From: a virus
Length of the DNA: 35,960 bases
Strand: one strand, 5' to 3'
Virus record (IMG/VR): IMGVR_UViG_3300009648_000002
Span: 1 to 35,960 of that record
Positions within the stretch are counted from its first letter, which is position 1, and every line of letters begins with the position of its first letter. Shown here piece after piece: positions 1 to 35,960 of the stretch. Position numbers and translations under genes: made by a program. Below the pieces are notes generated by a model. The model had not been told where the DNA came from, did no database searches, and saw only the letters and a list, made by a program, of their open reading frames with translations.

Positions 1-123
1 AAAGTATTACAACAAACCATACACAAAAAAGGTGCACATCAAGGCCCTTGTGAAGGAAACTATCAAATCAAAGACCCAAGATGGGGATCCTGTGAAAACA
101 CTCAAACTACTACTCGGCGACGA
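1..123. repeat. Terminal direct repeat, identical to 35838-35960 (circular genome overlap or terminal redundancy)
   Basis: The last 123 nt of the window match the first 123 nt base for base by visual alignment. Confidence 0.85.
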
Positions 124-1822
124 AAGAACAGATAAACTACTCAAATCTATTAAATCCTACAAACTAGACCCTGTCATCTCCATACCCTTCCATGGAGACA
201 GCGAAATCTATCTTGACGACAAGGACAACCGGGTGCTGCTCATTAAGACAATCAACATCAAGGGTAAATCAATCACAGAGGAAAGAATAGTCATAGACGC
301 CTACCCTGAAAGAATATCAATCTATGAATCCCCACTCCCAGGCGAAACACGACAAATCAAGATACAATGGATATCACCAACACAACAAAGATTCACGGAA
401 GGCCCAGCACCATTCGAATATCACATTGAAACACTCAAAGAATCAGGGCGTATATTCTATCACAACGTTTGCAGGGATGTCCTGGCCACCATAATAGGGT
501 GGATGGCCTACAAGGGAAACGCAGTGATTGAAAGGGGAGTTGACACACCCGGATTTTACTACAACGAGAACGAGGGAAAGATATACTCAGTCAAATATGA
601 TATCAAAGACGTCACCGCAGAGGATATCAAGGCATGTGCAGATCTACTCTCAAGTCTCTCAGAATACTTTGATGACCCTGTAAAGCTAGCAACAGTCCTG
701 AAATGGTGTATCATAGCACCATTCAATTATGTGCGTAAACAAGTCGGCGCCCCACTATTCCCCTACCTGTACCTCTATGGGGCTTCAGGTTCAGGGAAAA
801 CGAGCGTCGCGAGGATAGGTCAATACGTTTACACTTACCCCACAAGTGAAAACGATGTCGGAGGATCCAGCTTCGACACAGTAGCAAGGGTAGGTCATAG
901 GATCAGCCAATCAACATTCCCTATAATCATTAATGAACCAAAAGCCTGTTTTGATCGTCCCAGCACTGCTGAGATGATCAAGGTGATGGTCGAATCAACG
1001 ATAGGACGCGGGAGACATGAAGGTAAAGTATTCAAAAACATACCCAGCCTCTCACCAGTCATATTCACTTCAAACCATTACCTGCCACCAGATGACGCAT
1101 TACTGCGACGATTAGAGGTTATTAACTTCGTCCAGTCAGAGCGGAAGAATGATGAGGATTCGAAGGAGTTTAACGAGAAATTCAGGATTAACACGCCACA
1201 TAAGAGTCCGCTCATGGTTCTGAATAATCTTGGGGCATTCGCTGCCAGGGAGTTCATCGAGGACGTGGAGCTCTGCACAGATGATTGGAAGGCCGCTGCG
1301 AACAGTATCATCCTGAGATTCTATGCTGACGCTGGCCTGGAGCCTCCTGAGTGGTTGCTTGGCTGGTCAGAGACAGAGAGTCTTGAGGATGTGGACGATG
1401 ATATCAGGGAACAGGTGAGGATCTTCATTATGGAGCAGATCAACAATGAGGTCAGGAAGGCTAAATGGGTTGACAGTGAAGAATATAATGTTCAAAGGGA
1501 TCTTTCAGGGTCTTTCAGGGTCTCTTTCGCTGAGAAGGCTGAGAATGTCCTGTTGAATGGACTTATACCCTATATGGTCTTACATGAGGGGTATAAGGGG
1601 CGGCGTGTTGTATTTACAGGAGGTTTTAAGGATGCTGTGAACAGGGCGCTTGGTCTGTCGTTGACGTTGAAAGGCCTCTCTGACATCCTGGGTGAGGAAT
1701 GGATGTATGGTTCTGTCAAGGTGTCAGGGAGGGTGATGAAGTGTATGCATATCTGTTTTGATGAGTTTGTTAAGTTTGTTGATTTAAGTGAAATCATGTT
1801 AGAAAAAGAGGAGGATTTTTAG
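32..1822 (+). CDS. Replication protein with SF3-helicase-type NTPase domain; true start is at 35698 across the junction (~653 aa in full)
   Basis: Walker A LYLYGASGSGKTS, Walker B-like FPIIINEP and motif C IFTSNHY at SF3-like spacing; frame is open and continuous with the ORF starting at ATG 35698. Confidence 0.6.
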   Translation: MHIKALVKETIKSKTQDGDPVKTLKLLLGDERTDKLLKSIKSYKLDPVISIPFHGDSEIYLDDKDNRVLLIKTINIKGKSITEERIVIDAYPERISIYESPLPGETRQIKIQWISPTQQRFTEGPAPFEYHIETLKESGRIFYHNVCRDVLATIIGWMAYKGNAVIERGVDTPGFYYNENEGKIYSVKYDIKDVTAEDIKACADLLSSLSEYFDDPVKLATVLKWCIIAPFNYVRKQVGAPLFPYLYLYGASGSGKTSVARIGQYVYTYPTSENDVGGSSFDTVARVGHRISQSTFPIIINEPKACFDRPSTAEMIKVMVESTIGRGRHEGKVFKNIPSLSPVIFTSNHYLPPDDALLRRLEVINFVQSERKNDEDSKEFNEKFRINTPHKSPLMVLNNLGAFAAREFIEDVELCTDDWKAAANSIILRFYADAGLEPPEWLLGWSETESLEDVDDDIREQVRIFIMEQINNEVRKAKWVDSEEYNVQRDLSGSFRVSFAEKAENVLLNGLIPYMVLHEGYKGRRVVFTGGFKDAVNRALGLSLTLKGLSDILGEEWMYGSVKVSGRVMKCMHICFDEFVKFVDLSEIMLEKEEDF

Positions 1823-1834
1823 GTGAACCTAAGA

Positions 1835-2119
1835 GGTAACCTGAAGGTAACCCAAAGTAACCTCAACCATGAGGTTACCTTTAGAGGCCTGGAGAGCCTT
1901 TTTTTCAGTAAAAAGGAGTTCTCTGCGATTTCCGAAAAAGGTAACCTGAACCTGAGGGGTGATACCCTATACTCAGAAAAAACTGGTCAAACCCTTAAGT
2001 TACCTTGGTTACCAAGTTACCTTTTATATATGGGTTACCAAAGTTACTTTGGTTACTTTTCCTCAGAATCCTCAGATAACCCGGAAACCCATCAAAACCC
2101 ATCAAAACCCCGGGTTACC
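1835..2119. repeat. Iteron-like array of at least 11 (G)GTWAC(C) motifs, putative replication origin
   Basis: GGTAACC/GGTTACC copies at 1835, 1846, 1857, 1873, 1940, 1999, 2007, 2016, 2033, 2043, 2051 and 2113; also a tandem acccatcaaa x2 at about 2090-2110 and a T7 run at 1899-1905; sits directly downstream of the Rep gene. Confidence 0.5.
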
Positions 2120-2159
2120 TCAACAAGAACAACCAAAACTGAATATAGAGGTTAGATAG

Positions 2160-2453
2160 ATGAGAAATGATAAAAATGAGAGATTGTGGAACTTTAAGGA
2201 ATTAACCCACTACCTCGGCTACTCCATAAAAGTCAAACCCACCCTAGAAAAACTCGCTAAAAAGAAATACAGAGTCAGCCTAGCCGTCCTCGAAGAATTC
2301 CAGCCACACTTCACACCCACCACAGGTGGAATGAGCCAGACAACCATCGAAATAGGAATATACAGGACAAGGACAGAGTCAATCAAAAAGATCAAAGAGA
2401 TAATCGACACAATAACCATAGAAGACCTCCTCATAGGAGGGATGAAGCAGTGA
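2160..2453 (+). CDS. Hypothetical protein (97 aa)
   Basis: ORF with an RBS-like sequence; its stop overlaps the GTG start of the next gene. Confidence 0.45.
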   Translation: MRNDKNERLWNFKELTHYLGYSIKVKPTLEKLAKKKYRVSLAVLEEFQPHFTPTTGGMSQTTIEIGIYRTRTESIKKIKEIIDTITIEDLLIGGMKQ

Positions 2454-3214
2454 AAACCATAAGACTCACAACCGACAACCCAGCAGGCTTGCACAGCATA
2501 ACACACATGCTGACACAGATAAACGTCGACATTGCCACCATCCACGCCACACCAGAGGCCCTGACACTCGAAGGCATGGACGGGTCACACATCATCTACT
2601 ACAACATCAGGATCACACCAGACTTCTTCACAGACTACAAAGTCCCAGAGAACGAGGAACTATCAGTCCCAGTCGAAGAACTCAACAACATCCTCAAACT
2701 CACAGGGAGAAACAACACAATCACAATCACCAACCATACAGATGACGAGGAGAACACCACGTCCCTCATCGTCACCAGGTCCACAGAGAGAGACGAAACA
2801 AGGTTCACAATACTCTGCCCTGACATAGAATACGCCACCCCAACAGTCGACATGGGCACATTCGAATTAAATGCGACGATCACAGTCAACACAGACATGA
2901 TCACGTCATTCTTCAAAGACGCGGCCCTCACATCCTCTGACGCGATCGAGATCAAAGTCGATGAAGACTACCTGTACCTCATGACACCTGAGGATTACAA
3001 TGGATTCCATGTCATGTCCCGGCAGGGGCATGGTGAGAAAGTCTATGGGGAGTACTTAAGCCAATTCACGATAGAGAAACTCAAACCACTTATCCTCGAC
3101 GGATTTGAGACCGTTACAATCCACGTGGACAACGAGAAACCAATTAAATTAGAGTACTCAGACATTGGGGTTAGAGCGAACCTTCTCCTGGCCCCACGGA
3201 TCATAGGAGAATAA
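2450..3214 (+). CDS. pcn: DNA polymerase sliding clamp (PCNA) homolog
   Basis: 254 aa, typical PCNA length; C-terminal RANLLLAPRIIGE matches the archaeal PCNA C-terminus (compare P. furiosus ...RLTFLLAPRVEE); GTG start preceded by ggaggg. Confidence 0.7.
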   Translation: MKTIRLTTDNPAGLHSITHMLTQINVDIATIHATPEALTLEGMDGSHIIYYNIRITPDFFTDYKVPENEELSVPVEELNNILKLTGRNNTITITNHTDDEENTTSLIVTRSTERDETRFTILCPDIEYATPTVDMGTFELNATITVNTDMITSFFKDAALTSSDAIEIKVDEDYLYLMTPEDYNGFHVMSRQGHGEKVYGEYLSQFTIEKLKPLILDGFETVTIHVDNEKPIKLEYSDIGVRANLLLAPRIIGE

Positions 3215-3230
3215 AGGGAAGGGATTTGTC

Positions 3231-3800
3231 GTGACAACAGTCCACATCAACACAAACGTGAAACTAAGACGCAGAAACCTTAAAAACGCCGTCCTATACA
3301 TCGTCGATAAATACGGGGATGAGATAGGCCTCTCAAGTGATGGTGTCTGTGAAAAAATCATCGAGGAGGGTCTGATGCACAGTAGATCCTCCCCGACCAG
3401 GAAGATGGTAGCATACACGCTCTCACAACTGAAACGTGAGGGTATGGTGAGGGTGGATAACACTACGAGGGGTCCGAGATTCACCCTGGAACCACACGTC
3501 AATGTTCAAGTCCATCAAAGCCCCGCGCCCAGGACTATCTGGGCGGAATTATACATGGAAACCATCCAAGCCCTCAAAGTCTCTGACGAACCTCTCACAA
3601 CCCATGAACTCTTCGAAGTCGTGACAGATAACGGTGAATACAAGGGATATCATCTCACTGAAGAGGAGTATGTGACGAGGGTCATATCACCCCTCTCCTG
3701 TCAGGGTTATCTTATGGAGATAGATGAACCTGAGAGGTGCGCCAGGTGTTGGGGATACCGTGAGAATGGATTCAAAACAAGCAATGAGAGGATGAGTTGA
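3231..3800 (+). CDS. Putative DNA-binding protein with two winged-helix-like segments
   Basis: Segments such as MVAYTLSQLKREGMVRV resemble wHTH recognition helix plus wing; GTG start. Confidence 0.4.
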   Translation: MTTVHINTNVKLRRRNLKNAVLYIVDKYGDEIGLSSDGVCEKIIEEGLMHSRSSPTRKMVAYTLSQLKREGMVRVDNTTRGPRFTLEPHVNVQVHQSPAPRTIWAELYMETIQALKVSDEPLTTHELFEVVTDNGEYKGYHLTEEEYVTRVISPLSCQGYLMEIDEPERCARCWGYRENGFKTSNERMS

Positions 3801-4393
3801 CGGTGATGCTCATGAAATCTGTTGAATTCGCGTCTAAAGAATGGTGGGAGCTGAACAAGAGAGAGTCAAAGAAGATCGAGGACTCAATAATCAGGCTGAG
3901 GAAGGAGGGGTATAAATACGATGAAATCTCTGATGCTCTTAAAGTAAGCAGACAGCGTGTATGGAGAACCCTGTCAAGGCAGGGTTTAGTCCATAATTCA
4001 AGAGATATGGAGGAGATCAGGGCGAATGTTCACAGGCTCTACACGTTGGGGTACACTATACCTGAAATCGCTGCGACTGTTAAGATCAGTAAGAGGTGTG
4101 TGCGTCAACTTGTCAATAAAATTGAATACCCGTACAGGTGGCGTGTAAACCAGGAAGGGAGATTCATGAAGGTGGGATGGGAGCATCCCCGCCCCTTCAC
4201 CATCTTTGAGCTCCATAAAGCCTACAAGCTACACGTTGAGGAGGGGTGGAGTATCCTGAAGCTCATGAAGATCCTCGGTGGCGGATACATGACTGTCAGG
4301 AGGTACATACAAGCATATGGTGCAGGGGAACTCGATGAGGTCTGGGAGGCCTATGATAGGTATCATCGGGGCGGTGACGGTGTTCCTGGATGA
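3797..4393 (+). CDS. HTH-domain protein, putative transcription regulator
   Basis: Two HTH-like segments (YDEISDALKVSRQRVWRTL and YTIPEIAATVKISKRCVRQLV); start overlaps the upstream stop. Confidence 0.45.
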   Translation: MTVMLMKSVEFASKEWWELNKRESKKIEDSIIRLRKEGYKYDEISDALKVSRQRVWRTLSRQGLVHNSRDMEEIRANVHRLYTLGYTIPEIAATVKISKRCVRQLVNKIEYPYRWRVNQEGRFMKVGWEHPRPFTIFELHKAYKLHVEEGWSILKLMKILGGGYMTVRRYIQAYGAGELDEVWEAYDRYHRGGDGVPG

Positions 4394-4412
4394 TTAGATG
4401 ATTTTTCATCGT

Positions 4413-4435
4413 TATAGACATATATAGCGAAGTAT
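4413..4435 (+). promoter_or_regulatory. Putative archaeal promoter (TATA-like element plus conserved 14-mer atatagcgaagtat)
   Basis: tatagacatatatagcgaagtat is 19/23 identical to the motif at 10741-10763; both lie 10-14 nt upstream of an operon start codon. Confidence 0.4.
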
Positions 4436-4448
4436 GGGGAGTGGATAT

Positions 4449-4772
4449 ATGATATACATAGTTACACGGCATCAGAGCACTGTTAACTGGATTAAGGCTA
4501 AACTGAATGGTAAAGGCCTTGACCGGGACGTCTTCGTCGCAGGGCATCTCAGTGATCAGATGATCCTGCAGATGAAGAAGGGTGATGCTGTCTACGGCAT
4601 CCTCCCCATCCACCTCATCAAGAGGTTGCTCCGTAAGGGTGTGGATTATTATCATATGGTCCTACCCGATGTCCCTGAGGAATTCAGGGGTAAGGAGTTG
4701 AGTCTTGAGCAGGTGAAAGCGTTTGGAGGTCAAATATGGAAAATTAGGGATATTGATTGTGTTGAAGTATAA
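4449..4772 (+). CDS. Small protein (107 aa), possible Csx16/VVA1548-like CRISPR-associated (ring-nuclease-like) protein; identity uncertain
   Basis: Start at ATG 4449, in frame with the track ORF from 4434; motifs IVTRH and GILPIHL recall Csx16-family proteins from memory only. Confidence 0.35.
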   Translation: MIYIVTRHQSTVNWIKAKLNGKGLDRDVFVAGHLSDQMILQMKKGDAVYGILPIHLIKRLLRKGVDYYHMVLPDVPEEFRGKELSLEQVKAFGGQIWKIRDIDCVEV

Positions 4773-4799
4773 AAAAAGAAAAAATAGGTTATAGGTGGC

Positions 4800-4985
4800 T
4801 CACCGATCCCGAGGAATAACCCTCCACCGGCCCAAGACGAGGGCCTTCTGGAGGGCCGTGAATTCCTCGGGAGTGATGTCATACTCCCTGAGGAACTCAT
4901 CAAGGGACATCTTGTCCACTATTTCGTGTCTGTTCAAGGTCATCCCAAGAATATGGGATAACCTGAACCTTTTCTCTGTACTCAT
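4800..4985 (-). CDS. Hypothetical small protein (61 aa)
   Basis: Minus-strand ORF preceded by gaggtgagatag-ATG, the RBS pattern used elsewhere in this genome. Confidence 0.45.
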   Translation of the reverse strand: MSTEKRFRLSHILGMTLNRHEIVDKMSLDEFLREYDITPEEFTALQKALVLGRWRVIPRDR

Positions 4986-5004
4986 CTATCTCACCTCAAT
5001 AAAA

Positions 5005-5148
5005 CTACACTATCCTCTTCACCCTGATCTCGAGGAGGACAGCTTCATCATCCTTCATGCCGAGTGCTTCCCTGACGGCTATGGGGATTGATATCCTCCC
5101 CTGCCTGTCAGGTTTGGCGGTGAAGGTGAACTCAGTCACCTTCACCAC
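5005..5148 (-). CDS. AbrB/SpoVT (MazE-like) swapped-hairpin domain protein, 47 aa; sub-threshold gene absent from the ORF track
   Basis: Minus-frame translation VVKVTEFTFTAKPDRQGRISIPIAVREALGMKDDEAVLLEIRVKRIV fits the AbrB/MazE core pattern (GRISIP...RE.LG...D); GTG start preceded by a GAGG-like RBS; overlaps the 3' end of the acidic-protein gene. Confidence 0.45.
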   Translation of the reverse strand: MVKVTEFTFTAKPDRQGRISIPIAVREALGMKDDEAVLLEIRVKRIV

Positions 5149-5389
5149 CCCTCTCGTCGATGTATTTCATGACGCGGTCGAAGAGTTCCTCTGCGGTCTG
5201 ACCATCCTCATAGCTGAGCCAGTGGATGGCTACTGAGTCTTCGTCGAGTTCCTCTGGGTAGTAGAAGTCCTCAACGAGTTTGAGGGCATCCTCAAAGGCC
5301 ATCTCAGCTTCCTCGTATTCTTCCAGGATTTCATCTTTGAGTTCATTGGCGAGCTGGATGATCTCCAGCTCCTCTTTTGTTCTTTTCAT
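5132..5389 (-). CDS. Highly acidic small protein (85 aa)
   Basis: About one third of residues are D/E; intact ORF in the minus-strand operon. Confidence 0.5.
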   Translation of the reverse strand: MKRTKEELEIIQLANELKDEILEEYEEAEMAFEDALKLVEDFYYPEELDEDSVAIHWLSYEDGQTAEELFDRVMKYIDERGGEGD

Positions 5390-5391
5390 GA

Positions 5392-5973
5392 CTATTCCTC
5401 CCTCCTTTCAAGTTCTTCTTCGAGGAGGTTAATCGCCTCCTCAACATATTCAGGGTCAGCCCATTTAAGCTGACCCCGTGCTTCGAGCCATCCGCATAGC
5501 TTCCTATACTTCCCCAGGGTGGTGAGCCCTGGGGCGTGGATTATTCTGTCGATTTCGTACCTGAGAACCCCACGATAAAAGTCCTCGATGAAGGCTATTA
5601 CGCCTTCATCAACCGGGCCCTCCACCCTGTACAGTGGCACAACCCTCCCAGTGGACTCGACGTAAGCGATAACTGTGAGGGTTTCATCCCTCCTGCGGTA
5701 CAGGTAGAGGCCCTCCCGGATCCATGTCCCGGTCCAGTGCCACCGTTCTACCTCCGCAGCCACAAGTATCCTACCCAGCCCCATGTAGGGCTGGTAAAAA
5801 TCAACATCATCCTCGGCGGCTATGCCTCCGACCCTTACGATCTCCCACCCCTTGGCGTTGGGGTGGGACTCCCCTGTTATGGCCTGGGCGAGTTTCCCGG
5901 GCCGTACGAGGAACTCGTCCCCATTTCTTTTGAGGAGGGCTCTGCGCACACCCTCCATGACGTCAGTTTTCAC
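5392..5973 (-). CDS. Hypothetical protein (193 aa)
   Basis: Minus-strand ORF in the GC-rich cassette, immediately upstream of the acidic-protein gene on the same strand. Confidence 0.5.
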   Translation of the reverse strand: MKTDVMEGVRRALLKRNGDEFLVRPGKLAQAITGESHPNAKGWEIVRVGGIAAEDDVDFYQPYMGLGRILVAAEVERWHWTGTWIREGLYLYRRRDETLTVIAYVESTGRVVPLYRVEGPVDEGVIAFIEDFYRGVLRYEIDRIIHAPGLTTLGKYRKLCGWLEARGQLKWADPEYVEEAINLLEEELERREE

Positions 5974-6438
5974 TTATTCCACCTCCTTGAGGTCTACGTT
6001 GTAGACCTCTCCAGCCCTGACCCTGTCGGCCAGGGCCTCTACCTGGGTCGCTGGGGCGGCGACCCAGAAGTGTTCCTCGTCGCAGAGCCCACAGGACCCT
6101 GCGACGAGGACGACCTGGACCCCTGCCTGGGCCAGGTCGAATGCTATGCGGTAGAGGTCTACCGCATGCTCCTCGAGGAGGTCTTCGTCCTCCTCCTGGA
6201 AGTCTGAGAGGTCCCAGAGGACCTCCCAGAACTCCTCCCCCTGTGGGTGGAGTATTTCTTCCCCACCCACAATGGAGATCTCTTCGAGGATGGGGAAGGG
6301 GTTCTCCCCATCCTGGTTGTATTCGCTGATGGCCCTTAGGGCCTCCACGGTGTCTCCCATGGAGGCCCTGAGAAGGGCCCCATGCGCGATCTCTACTTCC
6401 GCGCATATTTCCACAATTTCTTTTCGCATATTCACCAT
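5974..6438 (-). CDS. Hypothetical protein (154 aa), first gene of the minus-strand operon
   Basis: Minus-strand ORF directly upstream of the 193-aa gene; a TATA-like sequence lies upstream on the minus strand around 6516-6530. Confidence 0.5.
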   Translation of the reverse strand: MVNMRKEIVEICAEVEIAHGALLRASMGDTVEALRAISEYNQDGENPFPILEEISIVGGEEILHPQGEEFWEVLWDLSDFQEEDEDLLEEHAVDLYRIAFDLAQAGVQVVLVAGSCGLCDEEHFWVAAPATQVEALADRVRAGEVYNVDLKEVE

Positions 6439-6702
6439 CTACCTCACCTCATTTTCTTGTGGGGTTCAGGTGTTTTCACCTGTACCCCGTTGAGTGTATT
6501 CTGTTGGAGGGAGTATATAAATGTTTTCCTCCCTCCACCTATACACTCCATGATATACCTTATTCTGGATACTAATATATATACTTTTCTATTCCTCGTT
6601 TACTTTTAATAGCAGAACAAAAAGAGACTAAAACATGAAACTCAGCACAATGTACGCTAAAGCAACAAAAAAAGAACTAAGACCAGGAAAAGAACAAGGA
6701 AC
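6439..6702. promoter_or_regulatory. Divergent AT-rich intergenic region with TATA-like boxes for the leftward and rightward operons
   Basis: AT-rich with tatataaa and aatatatatac elements between oppositely oriented gene blocks. Confidence 0.4.
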
Positions 6703-7257
6703 GTGCTGCATATGCCACGAACAGACAAGGAAGGACACAAAAAAAGATTAGGTCAAACCTTCACAACAACCGACCAGACAAGCAGGGGAGACGTCATCTG
6801 CCCCTACTGCATGACACTCAAAAAAGACAGCAACAAACTCCGCAGGACAATGTGGATCCTCACAGAAGACAAATTCCACCCATTCAAACGCCCAGAACTC
6901 CCACAGATCCTCAAAGAACCACCAGACAAACCATACTACCTCTACCTGACAAGGACGTACAAGAAGATAGGCTGGATAATCATGGACGGCCTCCTGAACC
7001 AACCCAACCAGAAGATCATCAGATTAGCCTGTGACATGGAAACACATACACTAAGCCGTGAATTAGCAGTCCAGACCATAGAATGGATTAACGAGCTCAG
7101 AGAAAAATACAGAATCAGTAAGACGGAGATGAAGACTGGTGATGTGAACCCAGGGAAACTACAGGACATGACCGTCAGGGAAGCCAGGAACCTGAACATC
7201 ACCCTAAACAAATTGAAGGGTAACCCCACATGGGAGTTACTCATAGACATGGCATAA
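6703..7257 (+). CDS. Hypothetical protein (184 aa)
   Basis: ORF following the divergent promoter region. Confidence 0.45.
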   Translation: MLHMPRTDKEGHKKRLGQTFTTTDQTSRGDVICPYCMTLKKDSNKLRRTMWILTEDKFHPFKRPELPQILKEPPDKPYYLYLTRTYKKIGWIIMDGLLNQPNQKIIRLACDMETHTLSRELAVQTIEWINELREKYRISKTEMKTGDVNPGKLQDMTVREARNLNITLNKLKGNPTWELLIDMA

Positions 7258-7278
7258 TATTAGAGAGGTGAAAAAGGG

Positions 7279-7410
7279 ATGACCCAAAAGAAGAACCCGG
7301 CACCCATCCTCGTCAGGATAGGGGTATGGGTGACCATGATCTGCCTGGGAATAGTACTATTCTTCGTAGTCCTGGGCCTAATATCCGCAATACTTGGAGG
7401 AGGCGTATAG
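7279..7410 (+). CDS. Small hydrophobic (single transmembrane) protein, 43 aa; absent from the ORF track
   Basis: ATG preceded by gaggtgaaaaaggg; translation MTQKKNPAPILVRIGVWVTMICLGIVLFFVVLGLISAILGGGV; fills the gap between flanking genes exactly. Confidence 0.4.
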   Translation: MTQKKNPAPILVRIGVWVTMICLGIVLFFVVLGLISAILGGGV

Positions 7411-7411
7411 G

Positions 7412-7759
7412 ATGACTGATGAGAAGACTGAAAACGCCCTCGCAAAGTGCCTTGCGATGACGTATAGGAACATTGAATGGAAGAAAGTTGGTGTGAAATC
7501 AGCGTACACATACTTCACAGACCGTGTGCGCGCAGCAAGCCGCATGAGCACCATCACATCCTTCCTAGAAGAACTAAACAGGATGTGCGGTGTCAGCTTC
7601 ACCCAGCACAGCCTCAAAGACATAAACACACTCAAAGAGAACGAAGACGAAGCCCTGAACCTACTCAGACATGAGACAAACTACGCAGTCCTACTCGCCC
7701 TGGAAGTTGTTGAGAAACTCAAAATGAAGAAAGCAGAGGATGAAGGTGATGAAGTATGA
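7412..7759 (+). CDS. Small alpha-helical protein (115 aa) immediately upstream of the RAMP gene
   Basis: ATG 7412 preceded by ggaggagg; stop overlaps the RAMP start (ATGA). Confidence 0.45.
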   Translation: MTDEKTENALAKCLAMTYRNIEWKKVGVKSAYTYFTDRVRAASRMSTITSFLEELNRMCGVSFTQHSLKDINTLKENEDEALNLLRHETNYAVLLALEVVEKLKMKKAEDEGDEV

Positions 7760-8601
7760 GGACTGTTAAGTACCCTGGAGTGTTAACTGCCCGGACACCT
7801 ATCCATCACGGCGGCCCTGAAGTCTATGGGACGATAAAACCCATACTCACACTCCCCACACTCATAGAGGATGAGAAGGGGATGAGGGTTGAGGACGTCC
7901 CCTACATCCATGGGAATGCGATCAGGGGGTACCTCCGCCGCCTGGTCATGCAGGACTTCCTGGATCAACTCGATTATGACCTCAAATCAGCGAAGATCTA
8001 CCATTTTCTCTTCACAGGGGGCCTCCTGGAGGCTAACACAAAATCCTCTGGTATGATTGACGTGAAACTCAAATCAGGGATCCGCAAGTACATCCCACCA
8101 GCAAGTCTCTGGGGTTCTGCCCTGGGCAATCAGATGATCCAGGGCAAATTGAAGGTGGACCTTGCAGAACCGATCTGCAAGGAACTTTACTGGCAGCAGA
8201 AACAGTACTGTGACATCGATGGCCCTTCAAGTTATTCCCTGAAGGCGAGGGACTTCGGGACCCGCCTTGATAGTCTCAGGGAGTACAAGGAGGACAGAGA
8301 GGATGGAGAGCAGGCGACGCAGATGAAGTACGAGTTCGAAGTCATCGTGAAGGGTGCGAAGTTCTATCATGAATTCACACTCACAGACACTGACCCTGTT
8401 GAGGAATCATGTTTCATCCGGGCATTGAACCTGTGGAGCGAACGCCCCTACCTCGGGGGGAAGAGCGGTTCAGGGTACGGGAAACTGGATATCCGCTATG
8501 ACTATGACCCTGATGCTGAGGCAACATACCTCTCGTATGTCGAGGAGAAGGCTGACCTGATCAGAGAGTTTCTTGATGAATTACAGGCAAACTGGCGATG
8601 A
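7756..8601 (+). CDS. RAMP-superfamily protein, Cas7-like (type III Csm3/Cmr4/Cmr6-like)
   Basis: Three RAMP hallmarks in canonical order: N-terminal TPIHHGG, central VPYIHGNAIRGYLRR (compare PYIPGSSLKG.LR) and a C-terminal glycine-rich loop YLGGKSGSGYGKL; 281 aa. Confidence 0.55.
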   Translation: MRTVKYPGVLTARTPIHHGGPEVYGTIKPILTLPTLIEDEKGMRVEDVPYIHGNAIRGYLRRLVMQDFLDQLDYDLKSAKIYHFLFTGGLLEANTKSSGMIDVKLKSGIRKYIPPASLWGSALGNQMIQGKLKVDLAEPICKELYWQQKQYCDIDGPSSYSLKARDFGTRLDSLREYKEDREDGEQATQMKYEFEVIVKGAKFYHEFTLTDTDPVEESCFIRALNLWSERPYLGGKSGSGYGKLDIRYDYDPDAEATYLSYVEEKADLIREFLDELQANWR

Positions 8602-9251
8602 TCATGTCTCTTGCTGCCAGGATCCAGGATAAAATCAGCGCCTACCTGAGACGATCTAAACACAGAGTAAAAAAACCACTCCACAAGGCCGACTCGAAGA
8701 CAATACAGGAAGTCTTTGACAGAATCCCTTTCTACACCCTTGCAAGGCACTGGGATGCCTATCACAACCCAGACAGATACACTACAAAAACCCTCTCCCG
8801 GCAGGTGAAGGTACCATACCACACACTCTATAATTGGATCACACGCAAATGCTCCACGAGGGTGGGCTGGTTCTGGAAGGGCTGGATCGTCATAGGGAAC
8901 ACAAAGGACCCCAGGAAACCAGCAATATTCAAGACAAAGACAACAGAAGAGATACTTGAAGATCTGCACACCAACTACATTGAATTACAACCACTCACAA
9001 GCAGGAAGGACTTTGAGGGATGCATAAGGAATTACCTGGAATGTAATGGGCCATCCACAGCCTTAGAACTCTACGAGGAGGTCGTGCTAAACAATTATAA
9101 CGCTAAATTCTCAAAGTCAAGGTACATGAAACGCAACGCATTCACCGCAATCATACGTGGCGTGGATGGCGTGGTGAAGGTAGGGACCAAAAAGGCGAAG
9201 GGCTATAACATGCCAGTCTATGCAGTTGATGAAGGATGTGTAGCAAAATGA
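8598..9251 (+). CDS. Hypothetical protein (217 aa), translationally coupled to the RAMP gene
   Basis: Start overlaps the RAMP stop; weak glycine-containing C-terminal segment; otherwise unrecognised. Confidence 0.45.
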   Translation: MIMSLAARIQDKISAYLRRSKHRVKKPLHKADSKTIQEVFDRIPFYTLARHWDAYHNPDRYTTKTLSRQVKVPYHTLYNWITRKCSTRVGWFWKGWIVIGNTKDPRKPAIFKTKTTEEILEDLHTNYIELQPLTSRKDFEGCIRNYLECNGPSTALELYEEVVLNNYNAKFSKSRYMKRNAFTAIIRGVDGVVKVGTKKAKGYNMPVYAVDEGCVAK

Positions 9252-9658
9252 AGGAAGATAGAGCGAACTCAAAGAACTCAAAGCTAACTGTAGAGTGGAA
9301 CTCAAAGAACTCCGCTAAGGAAGGTGTTAGGTCCTGGAGACTATCACAGTACCGCCGATTCCTTGAATCCGATGCCAAGACAAGCCTCCCTGTCACGAGT
9401 CATGACATCGAGGAAGTGATGTGGATCGTGGAGAGGCTGAAACTCTCAGACCTCCACCGGAGGGCTTCATGGGAGCAGGTGCTCCTTGCACTCACAGTCT
9501 TCATCCTGGAGTCCCGGCTCCCCTACACCATCCGCTTTGAGGATTATCGTATCCTCAAAGAGTATGGGGTGGATGTGGGTCTATACGCGGCGGTCCTGAG
9601 GAACCTCCTCAAGATTTACCGTATGAATATGCCTATACAGGCCTCCTTATCCCGGTAG
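9236..9658 (+). CDS. Hypothetical protein (140 aa)
   Basis: ORF overlapping the end of the previous gene; contains an internal short repeat gaactcaaagaactc x2 at 9265-9312. Confidence 0.4.
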   Translation: MCSKMKEDRANSKNSKLTVEWNSKNSAKEGVRSWRLSQYRRFLESDAKTSLPVTSHDIEEVMWIVERLKLSDLHRRASWEQVLLALTVFILESRLPYTIRFEDYRILKEYGVDVGLYAAVLRNLLKIYRMNMPIQASLSR

Positions 9659-9727
9659 TGGGTGTGTCCCTTGACTGTGTTACGTTATATAGTGAGAGGG
9701 GACTATTCAAGTCCCCTGGTGAAGGTT

Positions 9728-9877
9728 ATGTCTCCTTGTCCACAATGCGGGTCCCAGAGGAGGGATTATGTCCCTGAGGATGGGTACATGGTCTGCAAGG
9801 ACTGTGGCCTTGTCCTCGCCGCTGTGTATCCATACACTGCTGGGTTGAGAATGGATCTACCTGAGGGCCTCCTCTGA
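9728..9877 (+). CDS. Stand-alone TFIIB/TFB-type zinc-ribbon mini-protein (49 aa)
   Basis: MSPCPQCGSQRRDYVPEDGYMVCKDCGLVL matches the TFB N-terminal zinc-ribbon pattern CPxCG-x15-VCxxCGLV; ATG 9728 is in frame within track ORF 9662-9877. Confidence 0.5.
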   Translation: MSPCPQCGSQRRDYVPEDGYMVCKDCGLVLAAVYPYTAGLRMDLPEGLL

Positions 9878-9894
9878 TTCTGTTGGGGTGAGAT

Positions 9895-10173
9895 ATGGTG
9901 AGTGATGATATCCTGGAACATTTAGATGCCTTCAACTCCGCACTCATCGATTTTATGGATCGTTTTGAGTGGGTTGAGCGTGACGCTGTGGAGGTCTGCG
10001 ACATACTCAACTTTGGGGCCCTCATTGTCGGAGTGGCCGTCTGTTTCATCCCTGATGAGTGGGGTGGTGTCTGCATCTACATTGATGAGGATGCTGTTGA
10101 GTACCTCCCACTGATACTCGAGGTCTTCATGAAGAACTATGTGAACTGGGGTCTCAGGGAGCCGCTGATCTAA
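9895..10173 (+). CDS. Hypothetical protein (92 aa)
   Basis: ORF preceded by ggggtgagatatg RBS/start context. Confidence 0.4.
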   Translation: MVSDDILEHLDAFNSALIDFMDRFEWVERDAVEVCDILNFGALIVGVAVCFIPDEWGGVCIYIDEDAVEYLPLILEVFMKNYVNWGLREPLI

Positions 10174-10189
10174 TATTGGGGTGAGATAT

Positions 10190-10408
10190 ATGGGTGTTGA
10201 TCATGGAAAGCTGAGTACATACGTTGTTGGTGTTGTGGTCCTTGTCTATGGGTATCTTCTGAGTAATCCGGCCCTGATTGAGGCCTTCATGGCTAAAATG
10301 GGCCTTGCAGGATATAGTCCGCTTGTGCTCTCGATACTTGCATTCACATATGACTATTTCTTCCCCAGAGAGGAATCCTCAGACATTGGGGGCCAGGATG
10401 AGGCCTGA
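10190..10408 (+). CDS. Small membrane protein with two predicted transmembrane helices
   Basis: ATG 10190 after ggggtgagatat; two hydrophobic stretches (VVGVVVLVYGYLL and SPLVLSILAF). Confidence 0.4.
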   Translation: MGVDHGKLSTYVVGVVVLVYGYLLSNPALIEAFMAKMGLAGYSPLVLSILAFTYDYFFPREESSDIGGQDEA

Positions 10409-10424
10409 TTAAGGGTGGTGATGA

Positions 10425-10733
10425 GTGGGAGCGCATCAAATCCAATGCGATGACATTAAGAACCTTACCAGGGACCTTGCTGAGATTAGGGCAGTCCTCA
10501 GGGAGAAGAATGTTATGAATGGCTTCACAAGGGAGCGTATTGAGGATCTTGAGAAGACTGATGATGAGATCTATGATCGTCTCGATGGACTCCATGATGC
10601 CATTGTCAGTCTCCGTGAGGAGGTCTATGGCCTTAATGTGACTCTTAAATTGTTCTATCGGATAAACGTCGCTGTTATAATCTCTGTTTTCACTACTCTC
10701 GCGGTTTATGGGTTTGAGGTTATCCTGCTTTGA
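10425..10733 (+). CDS. Coiled-coil protein with C-terminal transmembrane anchor
   Basis: Charged helical N-terminus and hydrophobic C-terminus (VAVIISVFTTLAVYGFEVILL); GTG start. Confidence 0.4.
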   Translation: MGAHQIQCDDIKNLTRDLAEIRAVLREKNVMNGFTRERIEDLEKTDDEIYDRLDGLHDAIVSLREEVYGLNVTLKLFYRINVAVIISVFTTLAVYGFEVILL

Positions 10734-10740
10734 ACTTCAT

Positions 10741-10763
10741 TATAGTGTAATATAGCGAAGTAT
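10741..10763 (+). promoter_or_regulatory. Putative promoter, second copy of the conserved motif, upstream of the packaging/morphogenesis operon
   Basis: tatagtgtaatatagcgaagtat, 10 nt upstream of the terminase small subunit start. Confidence 0.4.
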
Positions 10764-10769
10764 ACTGGT

Positions 10770-11294
10770 GTGATGATGAAGGGTGAGGAAGAGAAGCACA
10801 GGGAAGCATACGACCATTACCTCGCCCACATTGAGGCAGGATACACAAAGACGGCGAGCGTCAAAGAAACAGCCAGAAGGATAGGGGTCTCCGAGGCAAC
10901 AGTCTGGAACTGGAAGAGACGCTTCCACTGGGATGAGAAACAGGCGATAGACAGCTACGAGATCAAAGAGACGTTCAAGGAAAGGAATCATGAGATCATC
11001 ATAGACTTCAAGACCAAATACCTCGCATTCCTCAATGACCTCATCGACCAGGCGATAGAGGAATTCCGTGAGGGCCGGGGCGTCGTCATGATACGTGATG
11101 TTGGGGACCTGGAACGAGTGATTAAAGTTGCCCTCCTCCTCCAGGGCGAGGCAACAAGCAGGACTGAGAGCAGCGTCCTGCAAGTGAACCGTGAAAAGAT
11201 AGAAGATTATGAGGAATACTTCAGAGAATTAGAGGAGGAATTTGGGGCGGGGGACGCTGAGGATGAGAATCAAGGTGCGGAGGGGATTTACTGA
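10770..11294 (+). CDS. terS: Putative terminase small subunit (HTH DNA-binding)
   Basis: HTH-like RIGVSEATVWNWKRR; position immediately upstream of and overlapping the large terminase gene. Confidence 0.5.
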   Translation: MMMKGEEEKHREAYDHYLAHIEAGYTKTASVKETARRIGVSEATVWNWKRRFHWDEKQAIDSYEIKETFKERNHEIIIDFKTKYLAFLNDLIDQAIEEFREGRGVVMIRDVGDLERVIKVALLLQGEATSRTESSVLQVNREKIEDYEEYFRELEEEFGAGDAEDENQGAEGIY

Positions 11295-12618
11295 TGCGGA
11301 GAAAGACTTCCTCACTGAGACAGTCCTTAAAAACCCTTACATTCCACATAAACCATTCCTTAAGCAGGCGATATTCCTCACCAGACTCGACAGGGAACTG
11401 CTCTATGGTGGTCAGGCGGGGGGTGGGAAATCTGACGCTCTCCTCATGGCAGCCCTCCAATATGTCATGTACCCGGATTATCATGCACTCTTACTTAGGA
11501 GGACTTACAAGGAATTAGCCCTTCCAGGTGCCCTTATGGATCGTGCGGATGAATGGTTAACACCTACAGATGCTGAGTGGGTCGCGGAGAACAAGACATG
11601 GGAATTCCCATCAGGAGCAACCCTCACCTTCGGTTACCTTGAGCATGAGCGGGATAAACACCGATACCAGTCCTCAGAGTTCCAGTTCATAGGCTTTGAT
11701 GAGCTCACAGAGTTCCAAGAGTCACAGTACACATTCCTATTCAGTAGGAACAGGAAGACAGAGGACAACCCCGTCCCCTTGAGGACAAGGGCTGCGACGA
11801 ACCCTGGAGGCGTGGGCCATGAATGGGTGAAAAGACGATTCATTGAAGGCCCAGCACCATTCCTTCCATCCAGTTACACTGAAAACCCTTACCTTGACGC
11901 ATCATATGAGGAAAGCCTTGATCTCCTCGACCCGATCACCCGACGCCAACTTAAATATGGTGATTGGTCCGCGACGATAGAGGGGAGGATCTTCACTGAG
12001 GATATCCTTGATTACTATGATGAGCCGCCGACACCAGAACAGACACGTCTTGCAGTCAGGTACTGGGACCTTGCAGCCACACCTGACAGGAATGATGACT
12101 CAATAAGTGGCGGTGCGGATTGGACGGTCGGGGCCCTCCTACTCCTTGACGACTCCGGAGGCCTCTACCTTGAGGATATCATCCGATTCAGGCTTTCACC
12201 CGCGGAGGCTGAGGATATGATCATTCAAACGATCCGTAACGACTTTCAAGTTTATAGGGAGAAATACATGGCGCGGGCTGAACTGGAGGGAGGAGCCTCT
12301 GCAAGGTATGTGATGGAATCCCTCCGCAGACGCCTGGCTGGGGTGAACTTTGACGGATCCCCTGTCCAGGGTAAAAGTAAACTAGATAGGGCCAGAGCGT
12401 TGATCCCAGCATTCAGGACATCCCAGTTAAGGCTTAAGAGGGATGCTCCATGGCTCTACACATTCACGAGGGAACTCCTCGCATTCCCATCAACTGGTGT
12501 TCATGATGACCAGGTCGACGCCCTCAGCGGGGCCTACCTCCAGGTCGCTGACTTAACATCAGGGGATCCGTATGGGGCTTCAGGTAGGCGGTATAAAGGT
12601 TATGGGGTGACATATTGA
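11242..12618 (+). CDS. terL: Terminase large subunit
   Basis: Walker A-like LYGGQAGGGKSDALL near the N-terminus; C-terminal nuclease-type motif HDDQVDAL; followed by portal; start may be ATG 11263. Confidence 0.7.
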   Translation: MGRGTLRMRIKVRRGFTDAEKDFLTETVLKNPYIPHKPFLKQAIFLTRLDRELLYGGQAGGGKSDALLMAALQYVMYPDYHALLLRRTYKELALPGALMDRADEWLTPTDAEWVAENKTWEFPSGATLTFGYLEHERDKHRYQSSEFQFIGFDELTEFQESQYTFLFSRNRKTEDNPVPLRTRAATNPGGVGHEWVKRRFIEGPAPFLPSSYTENPYLDASYEESLDLLDPITRRQLKYGDWSATIEGRIFTEDILDYYDEPPTPEQTRLAVRYWDLAATPDRNDDSISGGADWTVGALLLLDDSGGLYLEDIIRFRLSPAEAEDMIIQTIRNDFQVYREKYMARAELEGGASARYVMESLRRRLAGVNFDGSPVQGKSKLDRARALIPAFRTSQLRLKRDAPWLYTFTRELLAFPSTGVHDDQVDALSGAYLQVADLTSGDPYGASGRRYKGYGVTY

Positions 12619-35697: not shown

Positions 35698-35960
35698 ATG
35701 AACTTCAAAGAAGCCCTGAAGGACAACTACTTCTCATCAGGACTAGACACAGAGGACTTCATCATCGCAGTCACACAACTCGCGCGCGACCATAACATCC
35801 CAGAAACAGACATAACCAATGCCTTAATACCCATAAAAAAGTATTACAACAAACCATACACAAAAAAGGTGCACATCAAGGCCCTTGTGAAGGAAACTAT
35901 CAAATCAAAGACCCAAGATGGGGATCCTGTGAAAACACTCAAACTACTACTCGGCGACGA
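35698..35960 (+). CDS. 5' part of the Rep gene, continuing in frame across the repeat into 1-1822
   Basis: ATG 35698 preceded by ggggtg; open frame reads MNFKEALKDNYF... through the terminal repeat with no stop. Confidence 0.5.
   Translation, partial: MNFKEALKDNYFSSGLDTEDFIIAVTQLARDHNIPETDITNALIPIKKYYNKPYTKKVHIKALVKETIKSKTQDGDPVKTLKLLLGD

Follow-up and report, generated by a model that had tools for sequence, protein, structure and literature searches.

A probable replication module in a tailed virus of methanogens: a Cch/SaPI-Rep-like protein, a downstream repeat field and a divergent PCNA

Genes and features at the locus

The window, i.e., the whole stretch of viral DNA that was analyzed (35,960 nucleotides), contains the gene rep, a non-coding field of short repeats directly after it, a small gene (ORF97) and a gene for a PCNA (Table 1). 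An exact direct repeat of 123 nt, found by script, lies at both ends (1-123 and 35838-35960) and leaves a unit of 35,837 bp; judging from its sequence, the window appears to be a circular or terminally redundant unit, and because of this the rep coding sequence is read as resuming at window position 1. The open reading frame of Rep at 32-1822 (plus strand) does exist, but it is open to the left edge of the window, which cuts off its start. The true coding sequence is join(35698..35837, 1..1822), which encodes 653 aa, in agreement with the 653-657 aa of its homologues, and the N-terminal translation (MNFKEALKDNYF...) agrees with the N-terminus of P0002 (92% identical). True homologues of Rep are Drs3 ORF11 (AXN53392.1; 33% identity), gene 13 of Caudoviricetes sp. 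vir080 (37%) and the "primase/DNA polymerase" of HAV2 (31%).

The virus is probably tailed, infecting pseudomurein-walled methanogens (Methanobacteriales), and kin of Methanobacterium virus Drs3. Two clues point to the host: one gene of the genome resembles those for pseudomurein endoisopeptidases (C39 and PMBR domains), and records of Methanobacterium and Methanobrevibacter contain relatives of Rep. The GC skew of the genome, from which the location of the origin was to be derived, tracks gene orientation and gives no origin signal.

Table 1. Coordinates of the features of the locus (positions in the window)
Feature	Position	Strand	Remarks
rep, 5' part (first 46 codons plus 2 nt)	35698..35837	+	ATG at 35698; continues at position 1
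rep, remainder	1..1822	+	AAA+ initiator-helicase candidate; 653 aa in all
Rep Walker A, GASGSGKTS	779-805	+	residues 307-315 (full-length numbering)
Rep Walker B, PIIINEP	920-940	+	IIINE at residues 355-359
Rep predicted beta-hairpin	about 1001-1045	+	model residues 334-348; between Walker B and sensor 1
Rep motif C/sensor 1, VIFTSN	1058-1075	+	residues 400-405
Rep arginine pair in ALLRRL	1097-1114	+	RR at residues 416-417
Rep predicted C-terminal winged-helix-like domain	about 1526-1819	+	residues about 556-653; from secondary-structure order only
Repeat field, putative origin	1823..2159		non-coding; GC 0.41 versus 0.50 for the genome; directly after rep
Left array	1823..1881		degenerate copy GGTGAACC at 1823, plus array copies
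A-centred copies of left array	1835, 1846, 1856		three copies, 10-11 nt period
Inverted T-centred copy of left array	1873		one copy
T7 tract inside inverted repeat CCTTTTTTTCAGTAAAAAGG	1897..1916		from sequence and inverted-repeat list
Lone central copy, GGTAACC	1940..1946		solitary
Right array	1998..2057		two T-centred triplets, 8-9 nt period: 1998, 2007, 2015 and 2033, 2042, 2051
AT-rich spacer CTTTTATATAT	2021-2031		separates right triplets; TATA-like; AT-richest spot of the region
Tandem AAACCCATCA x2.6	2085-2110		followed by distal repeat copy at 2113-2119
ORF97, small protein	2160..2453	+	stop overlaps PCNA start by 4 nt
PCNA, highly divergent, 254 aa	2450..3214	+	no polymerase or clamp loader encoded alongside
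Terminal copy of window 1-123	35838..35960		assembly overlap or terminal redundancy

The divergent PCNA

The PCNA homolog claimed in the original prediction is borne out by sequence profiles and by its modelled fold. Pfam PCNA_N matches the protein at 2.9e-9, over the gathering score, while PCNA_C alone gives no match; residues 12-251 are covered by full-length matches to sliding-clamp models of NCBIfam (3.6e-20, under the curated equivalog cut-offs), and in a sequence search of the PDB, PCNAs align to residues 25-251 at 1.6e-10. The AF2 model (pLDDT 93, pTM 0.88), by which the predicted sliding-clamp fold was checked, has the complete fold, with two beta-alpha-beta-beta-beta domains of the same topology and a connecting loop. 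Among the top Foldseek matches listed from the PDB, all are PCNAs (query-normalized TM 0.79-0.87, target-normalized up to 0.89); versus archaeal PCNAs the model reaches a TM of about 0.85-0.89, and the rmsd of the Foldseek matches is about 2.1-4.1 Å. Profile matches and predicted structure show that this protein is a PCNA in identity and fold. The C-terminal LLAPRI (residues 246-251) is conserved, as had been proposed: in an alignment of 50 sequences P249 is invariant, and A248 and R250 are kept in at least 90%. A search of 1.8 billion representatives gave 227 matches at E<=1e-3, the best of which, other than the protein itself, is 32% identical, and tblastn versus 50,697 phage records gave no match. 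The protein forms a small clade of its own with three close relatives, the rest being at or below about 32% identity.

To describe the module as self-contained goes too far. Neither a polymerase nor a primase or clamp loader was recognized in the virus genome, PCNA is absent at all the more distant loci of the Rep family, and mosaic identities indicate that it recombines independently of the rep-repeat block. Given its absence in distant relatives and its independent recombination, PCNA is not an obligate partner of Rep, and on sequence it appears restricted to the sub-lineage of the window. ORF97, by the same mosaic identities, moves together with the rep-repeat block in recombinants; it has no family match in Pfam, PHROG or NCBIfam, and in distant relatives the DNA that follows the repeat field was found to encode no homologue of it.

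It is plausible that the viral PCNA would recruit the PolB/PolD of the host. A protein that is very divergent and dispensable in relatives could also serve in host takeover or as a decoy, for example by joining the PCNA of the host in rings that are mixed or inactive, or by sequestering PIP-box proteins. This would fit with channel helices that are poor in basic residues, the four together having 5 Lys/Arg versus 8.8 +/- 1.6 (range 4-12) in the nearest relatives and helix alphaA1 having none, and what viral PCNAs that stand alone do is recognized in the literature as an open question (PMC4889955). Nonetheless, we regard this explanation as unlikely, given that the model has the whole clamp fold at high confidence and that the C-terminal LAPRI is conserved, that one of the nearest relatives is even lower in basic channel-helix residues (the minimum of 4), and that the position of the gene in an early block of replication genes suits a role in the replisome. 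Furthermore, 86 of the 147 substitutions that separate the gene from a 78%-identical homologue lie at third codon positions, and this concentration indicates purifying selection.

The repeat field and the Rep protein

The dense cluster of GGTWACC motifs predicted after rep was confirmed, with 7 of the 10 copies in the window lying within 1835-2119. For the looser motif RGTWACY, 12 of the 19 copies in the genome fall within the 337 nt of 1823-2159, where 0.07 are expected (Poisson about 1e-23), and any other stretch of 337 nt holds at most 2. The AT-richest segment of 30 nt starts at 2021 and is 73% AT; it contains an AT spacer of only 11 nt, and no pronounced AT-rich unwinding element stands out. 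From its sequence, the T7 tract is possibly the oligo-T terminator of the rep transcript, and comparable T-runs also follow rep in the related records L002 and L003. When the window is compared with L019, the repeat region has 40 substitutions, only 2 of which are within the 84 nt of the repeats (binomial P = 0.001). All 12 repeat copies hold their position, while the tandem at 2085-2110 is not kept in L019. It is the spacers that change among close relatives, the repeats being conserved.

Ten relatives with 31-50% Rep identity were examined for repeats (L002, L003, L004, L006, L011, L012, L013, L014, which is HAV2, L023, which is Drs3, and L025). In all ten, a gap of 175-625 nt with clustered repeats follows immediately after the rep stop; the copies of L003 were seen by eye only, the automatic 8-mer pick having taken an AT-rich word in L002 and L003, and the L002 record stops 262 nt past rep. 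The offsets are essentially equal in eight of them (about 10-50, about 115, about 175-193 and about 211-229 nt). A single central copy about 97-121 nt after the rep stop is also found in L006, L011, L012, L013, and Drs3, and the right-hand arrangement of 3+3 copies in these five and in L004. For vir080, a gap of 343 nt following gene 13 is known from the annotation alone. The motif differs by Rep clade, being a GTWAC variant in most relatives, GGTAGCCA in L012, GGTTGAY in L013 and Drs3, and TTCTTACA in HAV2; this class follows the overall Rep phylogeny, in which the part of the C-terminal domain cannot be singled out. The genes 3' of the gap vary among the relatives and are not conserved, which means that the repeats go with rep. 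In L018 the repeat field is kept, but the place of rep is taken by a SWIM protein and by another protein with a P-loop and a winged helix; either the field works with another protein, or this low-coverage contig is a recent recombinant or chimera. The repeats are non-random, non-coding, conserved in position and lineage-specific in sequence.

These comparative data support an iteron origin as the best reading of the field, in line with the original prediction of an iteron field beside rep. A field that sits between two co-oriented transcription units may also be thought of as a transcriptional control region, containing operators and the promoter of the ORF97-PCNA operon and beyond, or as a site of Rep autoregulation. 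ORF97, the ORF at 3231-3800 and the triple-HTH protein at 3797-4393 would be candidate binders in that case, and several HTH proteins are indeed encoded just downstream. The TATA-like TTTTATATAT between the right-hand triplets, the oligo-T tract after rep, and the persistence of the field in L018, which has no window-type Rep, would all be compatible with such a role. However, what is conserved in the relatives is the adjacency of rep and repeats and their layout, and not ORF97 or the HTH genes. Drs3 and L004 have a spacer that does not resemble a TATA box, the repeat sequence shifts with the Rep clade, and a two-armed layout of 12 copies is typical of an initiator loading site, which makes a control region a quite unlikely explanation. 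Control-region and origin functions could coexist in the repeat field.

Rep had been described as having SF3-type motifs A, B, and C, and these are present: its compact core of about 100 aa has the SF3-type order of Walker A, Walker B, motif C (hhhTSN) and then an Arg finger, and the Walker A Lys, the Walker B Glu, the Asn of motif C (sensor 1) and both Arg are invariant in an alignment of 47 homologues. By fold, the SF3 class itself is tentative: the structures nearest to Rep are the staphylococcal self-loading initiator-helicases Cch and SaPIbov1 Rep, and MCMs and classic SF3 helicases come after them. The ATPase/helicase similarity expected from profile searches did not materialize. The window Rep has no match in Pfam, PHROG or NCBIfam, nor to D5_N, DUF5906, Pox_D5, Primase_C and similar SF3/D5-type profiles, and PDB sequence searches with Rep and with its family profile alike gave nothing beyond the P-loop, the family profile finding no Cch or Rep structure. 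DUF5906, a D5-type helicase domain, is weakly matched by 9 of the 47 relatives (best 9e-5), and Pfam DUF927 or Primase_Cterm/D5_N are absent from Rep and from all 47 at E<=0.01.

The AF2 model of Rep (pLDDT 86) starts with a beta-rich N-terminal domain, continues with an AAA+ core in which a beta-hairpin precedes the sensor, and ends in a winged-helix-like domain, and this three-part architecture agrees with the solved structures of Cch and SaPI Rep. Foldseek ranks Cch first (5dgk; 1e-11, a match along the whole length of the model), and then PriRep1, poxvirus E5/D5, the SaPI5 primase-helicase, MCM, and LTag. Some of the relatives have N-terminal fusions to Prim-Pol, RepB_primase or DnaG zinc-ribbon domains. 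It is the structure prediction, the fold search and these primase-fused relatives, and not the profiles, that sustain the helicase reading. The model shows an AAA+ protein with a helicase-like fold and conserved catalytic residues, which suggests that Rep has helicase activity; a search for a PIP box in Rep found none. Rep might instead act only as an initiator or recruiter like Cdc6/Orc1, or as another AAA+ machine, that marks the viral DNA and brings in the MCM of the host. This is very unlikely considering that the best whole-length fold matches are the proven helicases Cch, SaPIbov1 Rep, and PriRep1 (PMC9371898), that a beta-hairpin is predicted between Walker B and sensor 1, and that in relatives the protein is fused to a primase domain, with which replicative helicases usually work.

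Proposed replication mechanism and comparison with known systems

That 1823-2155 is a coding sequence, ORF110, with the repeats as its by-product, is extremely improbable: in all close relatives a frame of 110-115 aa right after the rep stop is uninterrupted and annotated by gene callers, with GAGGAGG 8 nt upstream of its GTG start, but versus L019 it has 3 synonymous and 24 non-synonymous codon changes spread flatly over the codon positions (17/11/12), in contrast with 23/13 and 27 of 44 changes at position 3 for the flanking rep, its stop position is not conserved, its predicted peptide is of low complexity and mirrors the repeats, and more distant relatives have no ORF here.

We consider it likely that the locus is a genome-replication module composed of a Cch/SaPI-Rep-like Rep, an iteron origin downstream of its gene, and a lineage-specific PCNA. 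By analogy with the systems compared below, Rep would bind the iterons and the field would function as origin. The proposed origin would be the 337-nt non-coding stretch with about a dozen iterons of 7-8 nt (RGTWACY) in a fixed layout, in which 3-4 left copies with a period of 10-11 nt are followed by one inverted copy, the lone central copy, and 3+3 right copies that are in the opposite orientation, with a period of 8-9 nt and an AT-rich spacer in between. The C-terminal domains of Rep would read the iterons, and Rep would assemble, probably as two hexamers, melt the DNA and act as a 3'-5' replicative helicase. Given that none of their counterparts was recognized in the virus, host primase, PolB/PolD, and RFC are assumed to perform the remaining steps of replication. 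As an addition specific to this lineage, the viral PCNA would presumably be loaded by the RFC of the host and serve as a clamp or hub for the PIP-box enzymes of the host on viral DNA.

A more far-reaching reading, which we put forward tentatively and which is doubtful when all its parts are taken jointly, is that of a deeply conserved and previously unrecognized class of origins in methanogen tailed viruses and HAV2, combined with a two-hexamer loading platform and a charge-depleted orphan PCNA hub. The class would comprise Drs3-like Methanobavirales, gut Methanobrevibacter viruses, and the hyperthermophilic HAV2. With about 12 iterons, every C-terminal domain in a pair of Rep hexamers would have a site of its own, with self-loading as proposed by analogy with Cch. 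In the sub-lineage of the window, the PCNA would be a hub specific to the virus and not a generic clamp, either coupling to Rep or capturing the PolB/PolD of the host selectively.

The module is a sound and fairly ordinary kind of viral replication module, previously unannotated in this group of methanogen viruses. Its relevance lies in the fact that replication origins and initiators are almost undefined in archaeal tailed viruses. Genetic tools for Methanobacteriales are few; if the reading is correct, the compact rep plus origin cassette of about 2.3 kb would supply vectors for them with a defined replicon, whose iteron code is clear, can be tested and varies from lineage to lineage. It would also extend to Archaea the design of a self-loading initiator-helicase with downstream iterons, so far studied in staphylococcal islands. 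The divergent stand-alone PCNA bears on the question of why viruses that lack a polymerase carry a clamp (PMC4889955).

In SaPI and SCCmec it was found experimentally that the C-terminal winged helix reads iterons, which lie directly 3' of rep in oppositely oriented sets (PMC9371898, PMC7581432). The window shares with them the position of the iterons immediately downstream of rep and the opposite orientation of the sets. It has no detectable sequence similarity to the SaPI module of S. aureus, which consists of Rep or Pri-Rep and an origin (8tch, SaPIbov1 Rep; 7pds, Rep1; 7ola, PriRep5). SaPIs are satellites in bacteria, whereas the window is a complete tailed virus with an archaeal host. Its iterons have 7-8 nt versus 5-6 nt in SaPI, and its fixed layout of 3-4+1 / 1 / 3+3 is without the clear central AT-rich block of the SaPI type. 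A PCNA gene accompanies the module, unlike in SaPI. Cch (5dgk, DUF927, "MCM-like") and Cch2 of SCCmec are bacterial, and the window Rep and its relatives are without Pfam DUF927; a proven origin of its own is not described for SCCmec Cch in the SaPI/SCCmec literature cited here. The comparison also included SV40 LTag, papillomavirus E1, and the D5-like SF3 primase-helicases (vaccinia D5/MPXV E5, phage NrS-1 and ASFV C962R; Pfam D5_N-DUF5906-Pox_D5).

Among archaeal viruses, Drs3 and HAV2 have a repeat field after the homologous gene, as in the window, with different iteron sequences. In Drs3 and vir080, the two nearest viruses in the databases, the homologue is annotated as hypothetical, and Drs3, vir080, and HAV2 all have no origin annotation and no PCNA of the window type. 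Stand-alone PCNAs occur in haloarchaeal tailed viruses and in T. kodakarensis, where PCNA2/TK0582 lies in an integrated element. Like that of the window, stand-alone viral and proviral PCNAs have no cognate polymerase or clamp loader in the genome (PMC4889955), and what sets the window PCNA apart from the other viral ones is that it forms its own small clade with few basic residues in the channel helices.

The predicted initiator gene and its genome

The first 123 nt of the window are copied exactly at 35838-35960 and, given that the two ends are identical, the genome is a single 35,837-bp unit, circular or terminally redundant. A PCNA from the same 90% cluster is also found on independent contigs of 35,978 and 35,991 nt. 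The frame of rep stays open up to the left window edge, and homologues of the encoded protein measure 650-690 aa. The start of the described module at position 1 is an artefact of the window cut, since the coding sequence begins with an ATG at 35698 and crosses the junction to 1822, giving a protein of 653 aa.

The motifs on which Rep had been recognised are present in ORF 32-1822 (GASGSGKTS, PIIINEP, VIFTSN, and ALLRRL), and an alignment of 47 sequences shows that the Walker A lysine, the Walker B glutamate, the motif C asparagine, and both arginines are invariant. The expected similarity to ATPases or helicases was not recovered by profile searches, given that Pfam, PHROGs, NCBIfam, phmmer against the PDB, and the family profile against the PDB returned nothing beyond the P-loop, but it was recovered by structure prediction and fold search. 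In the AF2 model (pLDDT 86), a beta-rich N-terminal domain is followed by an alpha/beta ATPase core with a beta-hairpin between Walker B and sensor 1, then by a helical region and a C-terminal helix-helix-hairpin unit of the kind seen in winged helices. The best Foldseek match is the SCCmec helicase Cch (1e-11, whole chain), followed by SaPI PriRep1, monkeypox E5 and vaccinia D5, the SaPI5 primase-helicase, MCM, RuvB, and SV40 LTag. Cch and Rep2 have been placed with the MCM-like SF6, and Rep1 and PriRep5 with SF3 (Qiao et al., PMC9371898). The TSN motif C of the window Rep is SF3-like, and Pfam DUF5906, the helicase domain of D5 and NrS-1, matches weakly in 9 of the 47 Rep relatives. N-terminal Prim-Pol (n = 11), RepB primase (n = 3), and DnaG zinc ribbon (n = 2) domains are found in relatives, primase domains being the usual company of replicative helicases. 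Given the fold matches, the SF3-like motif C, the weak DUF5906 matches, and the primase-fused relatives, Rep is called a predicted AAA+ initiator-helicase of the Cch/SaPI-Rep kind, which may be of either the SF3 or the MCM-like class.

The genome encodes the small and large terminase subunits and a Mu-type portal, and the size and position of a 1470-aa ORF suggest that it is the tape-measure protein. The candidate lysis enzyme, which is pseudomurein-endoisopeptidase-like, combines peptidase C39 domains with a pseudomurein-binding repeat, which points to a Methanobacteriales host. Homologues of Rep are found in Methanobacterium virus Drs3, in the human-gut Methanobacteriales virus vir080, and in Methanobacterium and Methanobrevibacter records. 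From the structural genes, the pseudomurein enzyme, and the hosts of the Rep homologues, the source is concluded to be a tailed virus, related to Methanobavirales, that infects a methanogen with a pseudomurein wall. No nucleotide similarity of the window to 50,697 phage records was found, and a scan of genome contigs gave matches only in one Methanobacterium sp. chromosome and one mis-binned contig.

Coordinates of the features, with the layout of the repeats in eight loci of Rep relatives
Feature	Window position	Distance from rep stop in the eight loci (nt)	Arrangement or match
rep	join(35698..35837, 1..1822), +
Left copies	1835, 1846, 1856; degenerate copy 1823	~+10 to +40	Eight loci: 2-4 copies, one orientation, 10-11 nt or ~20 nt apart
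Inverted copy	1873	~+50
Lone copy	1940	~+100 to +120
Two triplets	1998/2007/2015 and 2033/2042/2051	~+150 to +195 and ~+196 to +230	Eight loci: opposite orientation, 8-9 nt period, short AT-rich spacer between; window: flanking CTTTTATATAT
Extra copy	2113
ORF97	2160-2453, +
PCNA	2450-3214, +
189-aa ORF	3231-3800
Triple-HTH protein	3797-4393		Resembles CRISPR-repeat-binding Cbp1, 1.4e-11
Csx16 (Cas_VVA1548)	4434-4772		4e-29
Csf1/Cas8u-like	6703-7257		Weak, 3.5e-4
Type IV Csf2/Cas7-like	7756-8601		NCBIfam 2e-14; Pfam RAMPs 4e-8
ORF with PIP-box-like motif	8598-9251
Candidate lysis enzyme	32071-32805

The repeat field and its counterparts in relatives

The cluster of GGTWACC motifs reported downstream of rep is confirmed, with 7 of the 10 window copies lying within 1835-2119. 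For the looser form RGTWACY, 12 of the 19 copies in the window fall in the 337 nt that separate rep from the next gene, where 0.07 would be expected, and no other 337-nt stretch of the window holds more than two. No marked AT-rich unwinding block was seen in the field.

The strongest new evidence on this field comes from comparing the sequences of ten loci that encode Rep relatives of 31-50% identity, including Drs3, HAV2, and PrimPol-fused forms. In all ten, short repeats cluster in a gap of 175-625 nt that follows the rep stop, and in eight the layout measured from the rep stop is nearly superimposable; the window field matches this common layout exactly. For the loci L002 and L003, the automatic 8-mer pick took an AT-rich word instead; the L002 contig stops 262 nt past rep, and the copies in L003 were recognised by eye only. 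The motif itself varies by Rep clade, being a GTWAC variant in most loci, GGTAGCCA in L012, and GGTTGAY in both L013 and Drs3, which share 67-71% Rep identity. The Drs3 field (6702-6959) holds 12 GGTTGAY copies in a 4+1 / 1 / 3+3 layout and the HAV2 field (2731-3355) holds 8 copies of TTCTTACA; these iteron fields lie directly after the Rep homologues and are unannotated in the published genomes. Given that the genes past the gap are unrelated between lineages, the repeat field goes with rep. The motif class follows the whole Rep phylogeny and, for this reason, the C-terminal domain is not separable as the determinant of the motif.

Among close relatives, the length of the field is constant at 337 nt. 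Between the window and L019, a close-relative contig, 2 of 40 substitutions fall within the 84 nt of repeats (P = 0.001), and both turn a degenerate copy into a consensus copy.

The field may also have a regulatory role, possibly alongside that of an origin, because it contains a TATA-like spacer and an oligo-T tract, which fit such a role and suggest that the terminator of rep and the next promoter lie within it. A known RNA in the field was considered, but no Rfam family and no tRNA were found in the whole window; the single-strand fold z-score of -3.15 reflects the inverted repeat copies. The 110-115-aa ORF that gene callers place in the field (ORF110) was rejected as a gene on its substitution pattern, which is without a coding signature: of its changes against L019, 3 are synonymous and 24 non-synonymous, their profile over the codon positions is flat, and its stop is not conserved; in the adjacent rep segment, 23 are synonymous and 13 non-synonymous, with a third-position excess.

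GC skew, proposed as a check on origin location, shows no extremum at 1.8-2.1 kb and is uninformative because the cumulative skew tracks gene orientation, rising from ~7 kb to 33.5 kb and falling over the minus-strand genes and the PCNA gene.

PCNA, recombination, and neighbouring genes

The identification of the 254-aa ORF as a PCNA stands: profiles match, the C-terminus reads LLAPRI, a clamp fold is modelled by AF2 (pLDDT 93, pTM 0.88), and the top PDB fold matches listed are all PCNAs, with TM-scores of ~0.8-0.9. The protein is unusually divergent. A word-indexed search of 5.8 billion proteins gave one distant relative besides three close ones, exhaustive HMMER searching of 1.8 billion representatives gave only 227 matches at E<=1e-3, the best outside its own cluster being 32% identical, and tblastn against 50,697 phage records gave nothing. 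The four channel-lining helices (residues 9-24, 73-88, 146-160, and 206-216) hold 5 Lys/Arg in total, with zero in the first, versus 8.8 +/- 1.6 in the nearest relatives. Compared with a 78%-identical homologue, 86 of 147 substitutions are in the third codon position, a bias that shows purifying selection on the gene.

What viral PCNAs that stand alone do is treated in the literature as an open question (PMC4889955). From what PCNAs generally do, it may reasonably be inferred that this one would bring the host PolB/PolD to the viral DNA. A motif scan of Rep found no PIP-box. The ORF at 8598-9251 has a PIP-box-like QDKISAYL near its N-terminus (residues 10-17), the only terminal PIP-like motif in the genome, where the scan gave two internal matches besides; this protein is a possible PCNA client. 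Directly 3' of the PCNA gene, the 189-aa ORF has by eye two winged-helix-like units and no family matches, and it is kept beside PCNA in four close-relative contigs (L017, L019, L020, and L022).

The module had been described as self-contained, which it is not: no polymerase, primase, or clamp loader was found when the remaining early genes were scanned with Pfam, PHROG, and NCBIfam, the window Rep is without the primase domain that some relatives carry, and the PCNA gene is separately exchangeable. When PCNA and its neighbours were searched for in related Rep loci by tblastn, blastp, and HMM, PCNA was found in the closest contigs only, and in none of the distant loci, Drs3 and vir080 included. 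Identity profiles place recombination break-points at the ORF97/PCNA boundary. In L017, rep, the field, and ORF97 are 98-100% identical to the window and PCNA 81%, while in L019 the corresponding values are 85-88% and 99.5%. Across window positions 1445-3214, comparison with L017, L019, L021, and L022 shows a mosaic with jumps between ~81-88% and 98-100% identity, which lie within the repeat field and where ORF97 meets PCNA; therefore, frequent recombination shuffles the rep-ori block and the PCNA block. Given its confinement to immediate relatives and the break-points at its boundary, PCNA is an accessory gene.

In the related contig L018, most of rep is replaced (1-1842) by two other genes, one encoding another P-loop ATPase, whose C-terminal tail is winged-helix-like, and one encoding a SWIM zinc-finger protein of 83 aa. 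This contig, of low coverage (2.6), keeps the final 43 codons of rep, all of the repeat field, and PCNA. This could be a recent recombinant with a non-homologous initiator replacement or an assembly chimera, or another protein could be able to use the field.

The early region also contains Cas-like genes (6703-9658 plus 3797-4772), with no CRISPR array found within 4700-11300. The Cas_VVA1548 gene is present in Drs3 too. The Cas-like genes may form a type IV-like module that lacks an array, or else an anti-CRISPR set.

Relation to known origin designs

The three items observed originally, rep, repeats, and PCNA, are all borne out, and the interpretation built on them holds in part. On the best reading, this archaeal tailed virus has a SaPI-like rep and iteron origin, joined by an orphan PCNA specific to its lineage. 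In the literature, no description was found of the Rep family, its origin, or PCNA in Methanobavirales. With this reading, methanogen viruses gain an annotation for a protein family and for an origin architecture that had both stood as 'hypothetical', along with a compact replicon that can be tested.

The design of rep with an iteron origin is known in kind. In SaPIs, it has been experimentally established that the iterons lie directly downstream of rep in oppositely directed sets and that a self-loading helicase reads them through its C-terminal winged helix, and the same design has been proposed for SCCmec (PMC9371898, PMC7581432). The window has this same arrangement, with rep followed by a downstream field of putative iterons in opposed sets.
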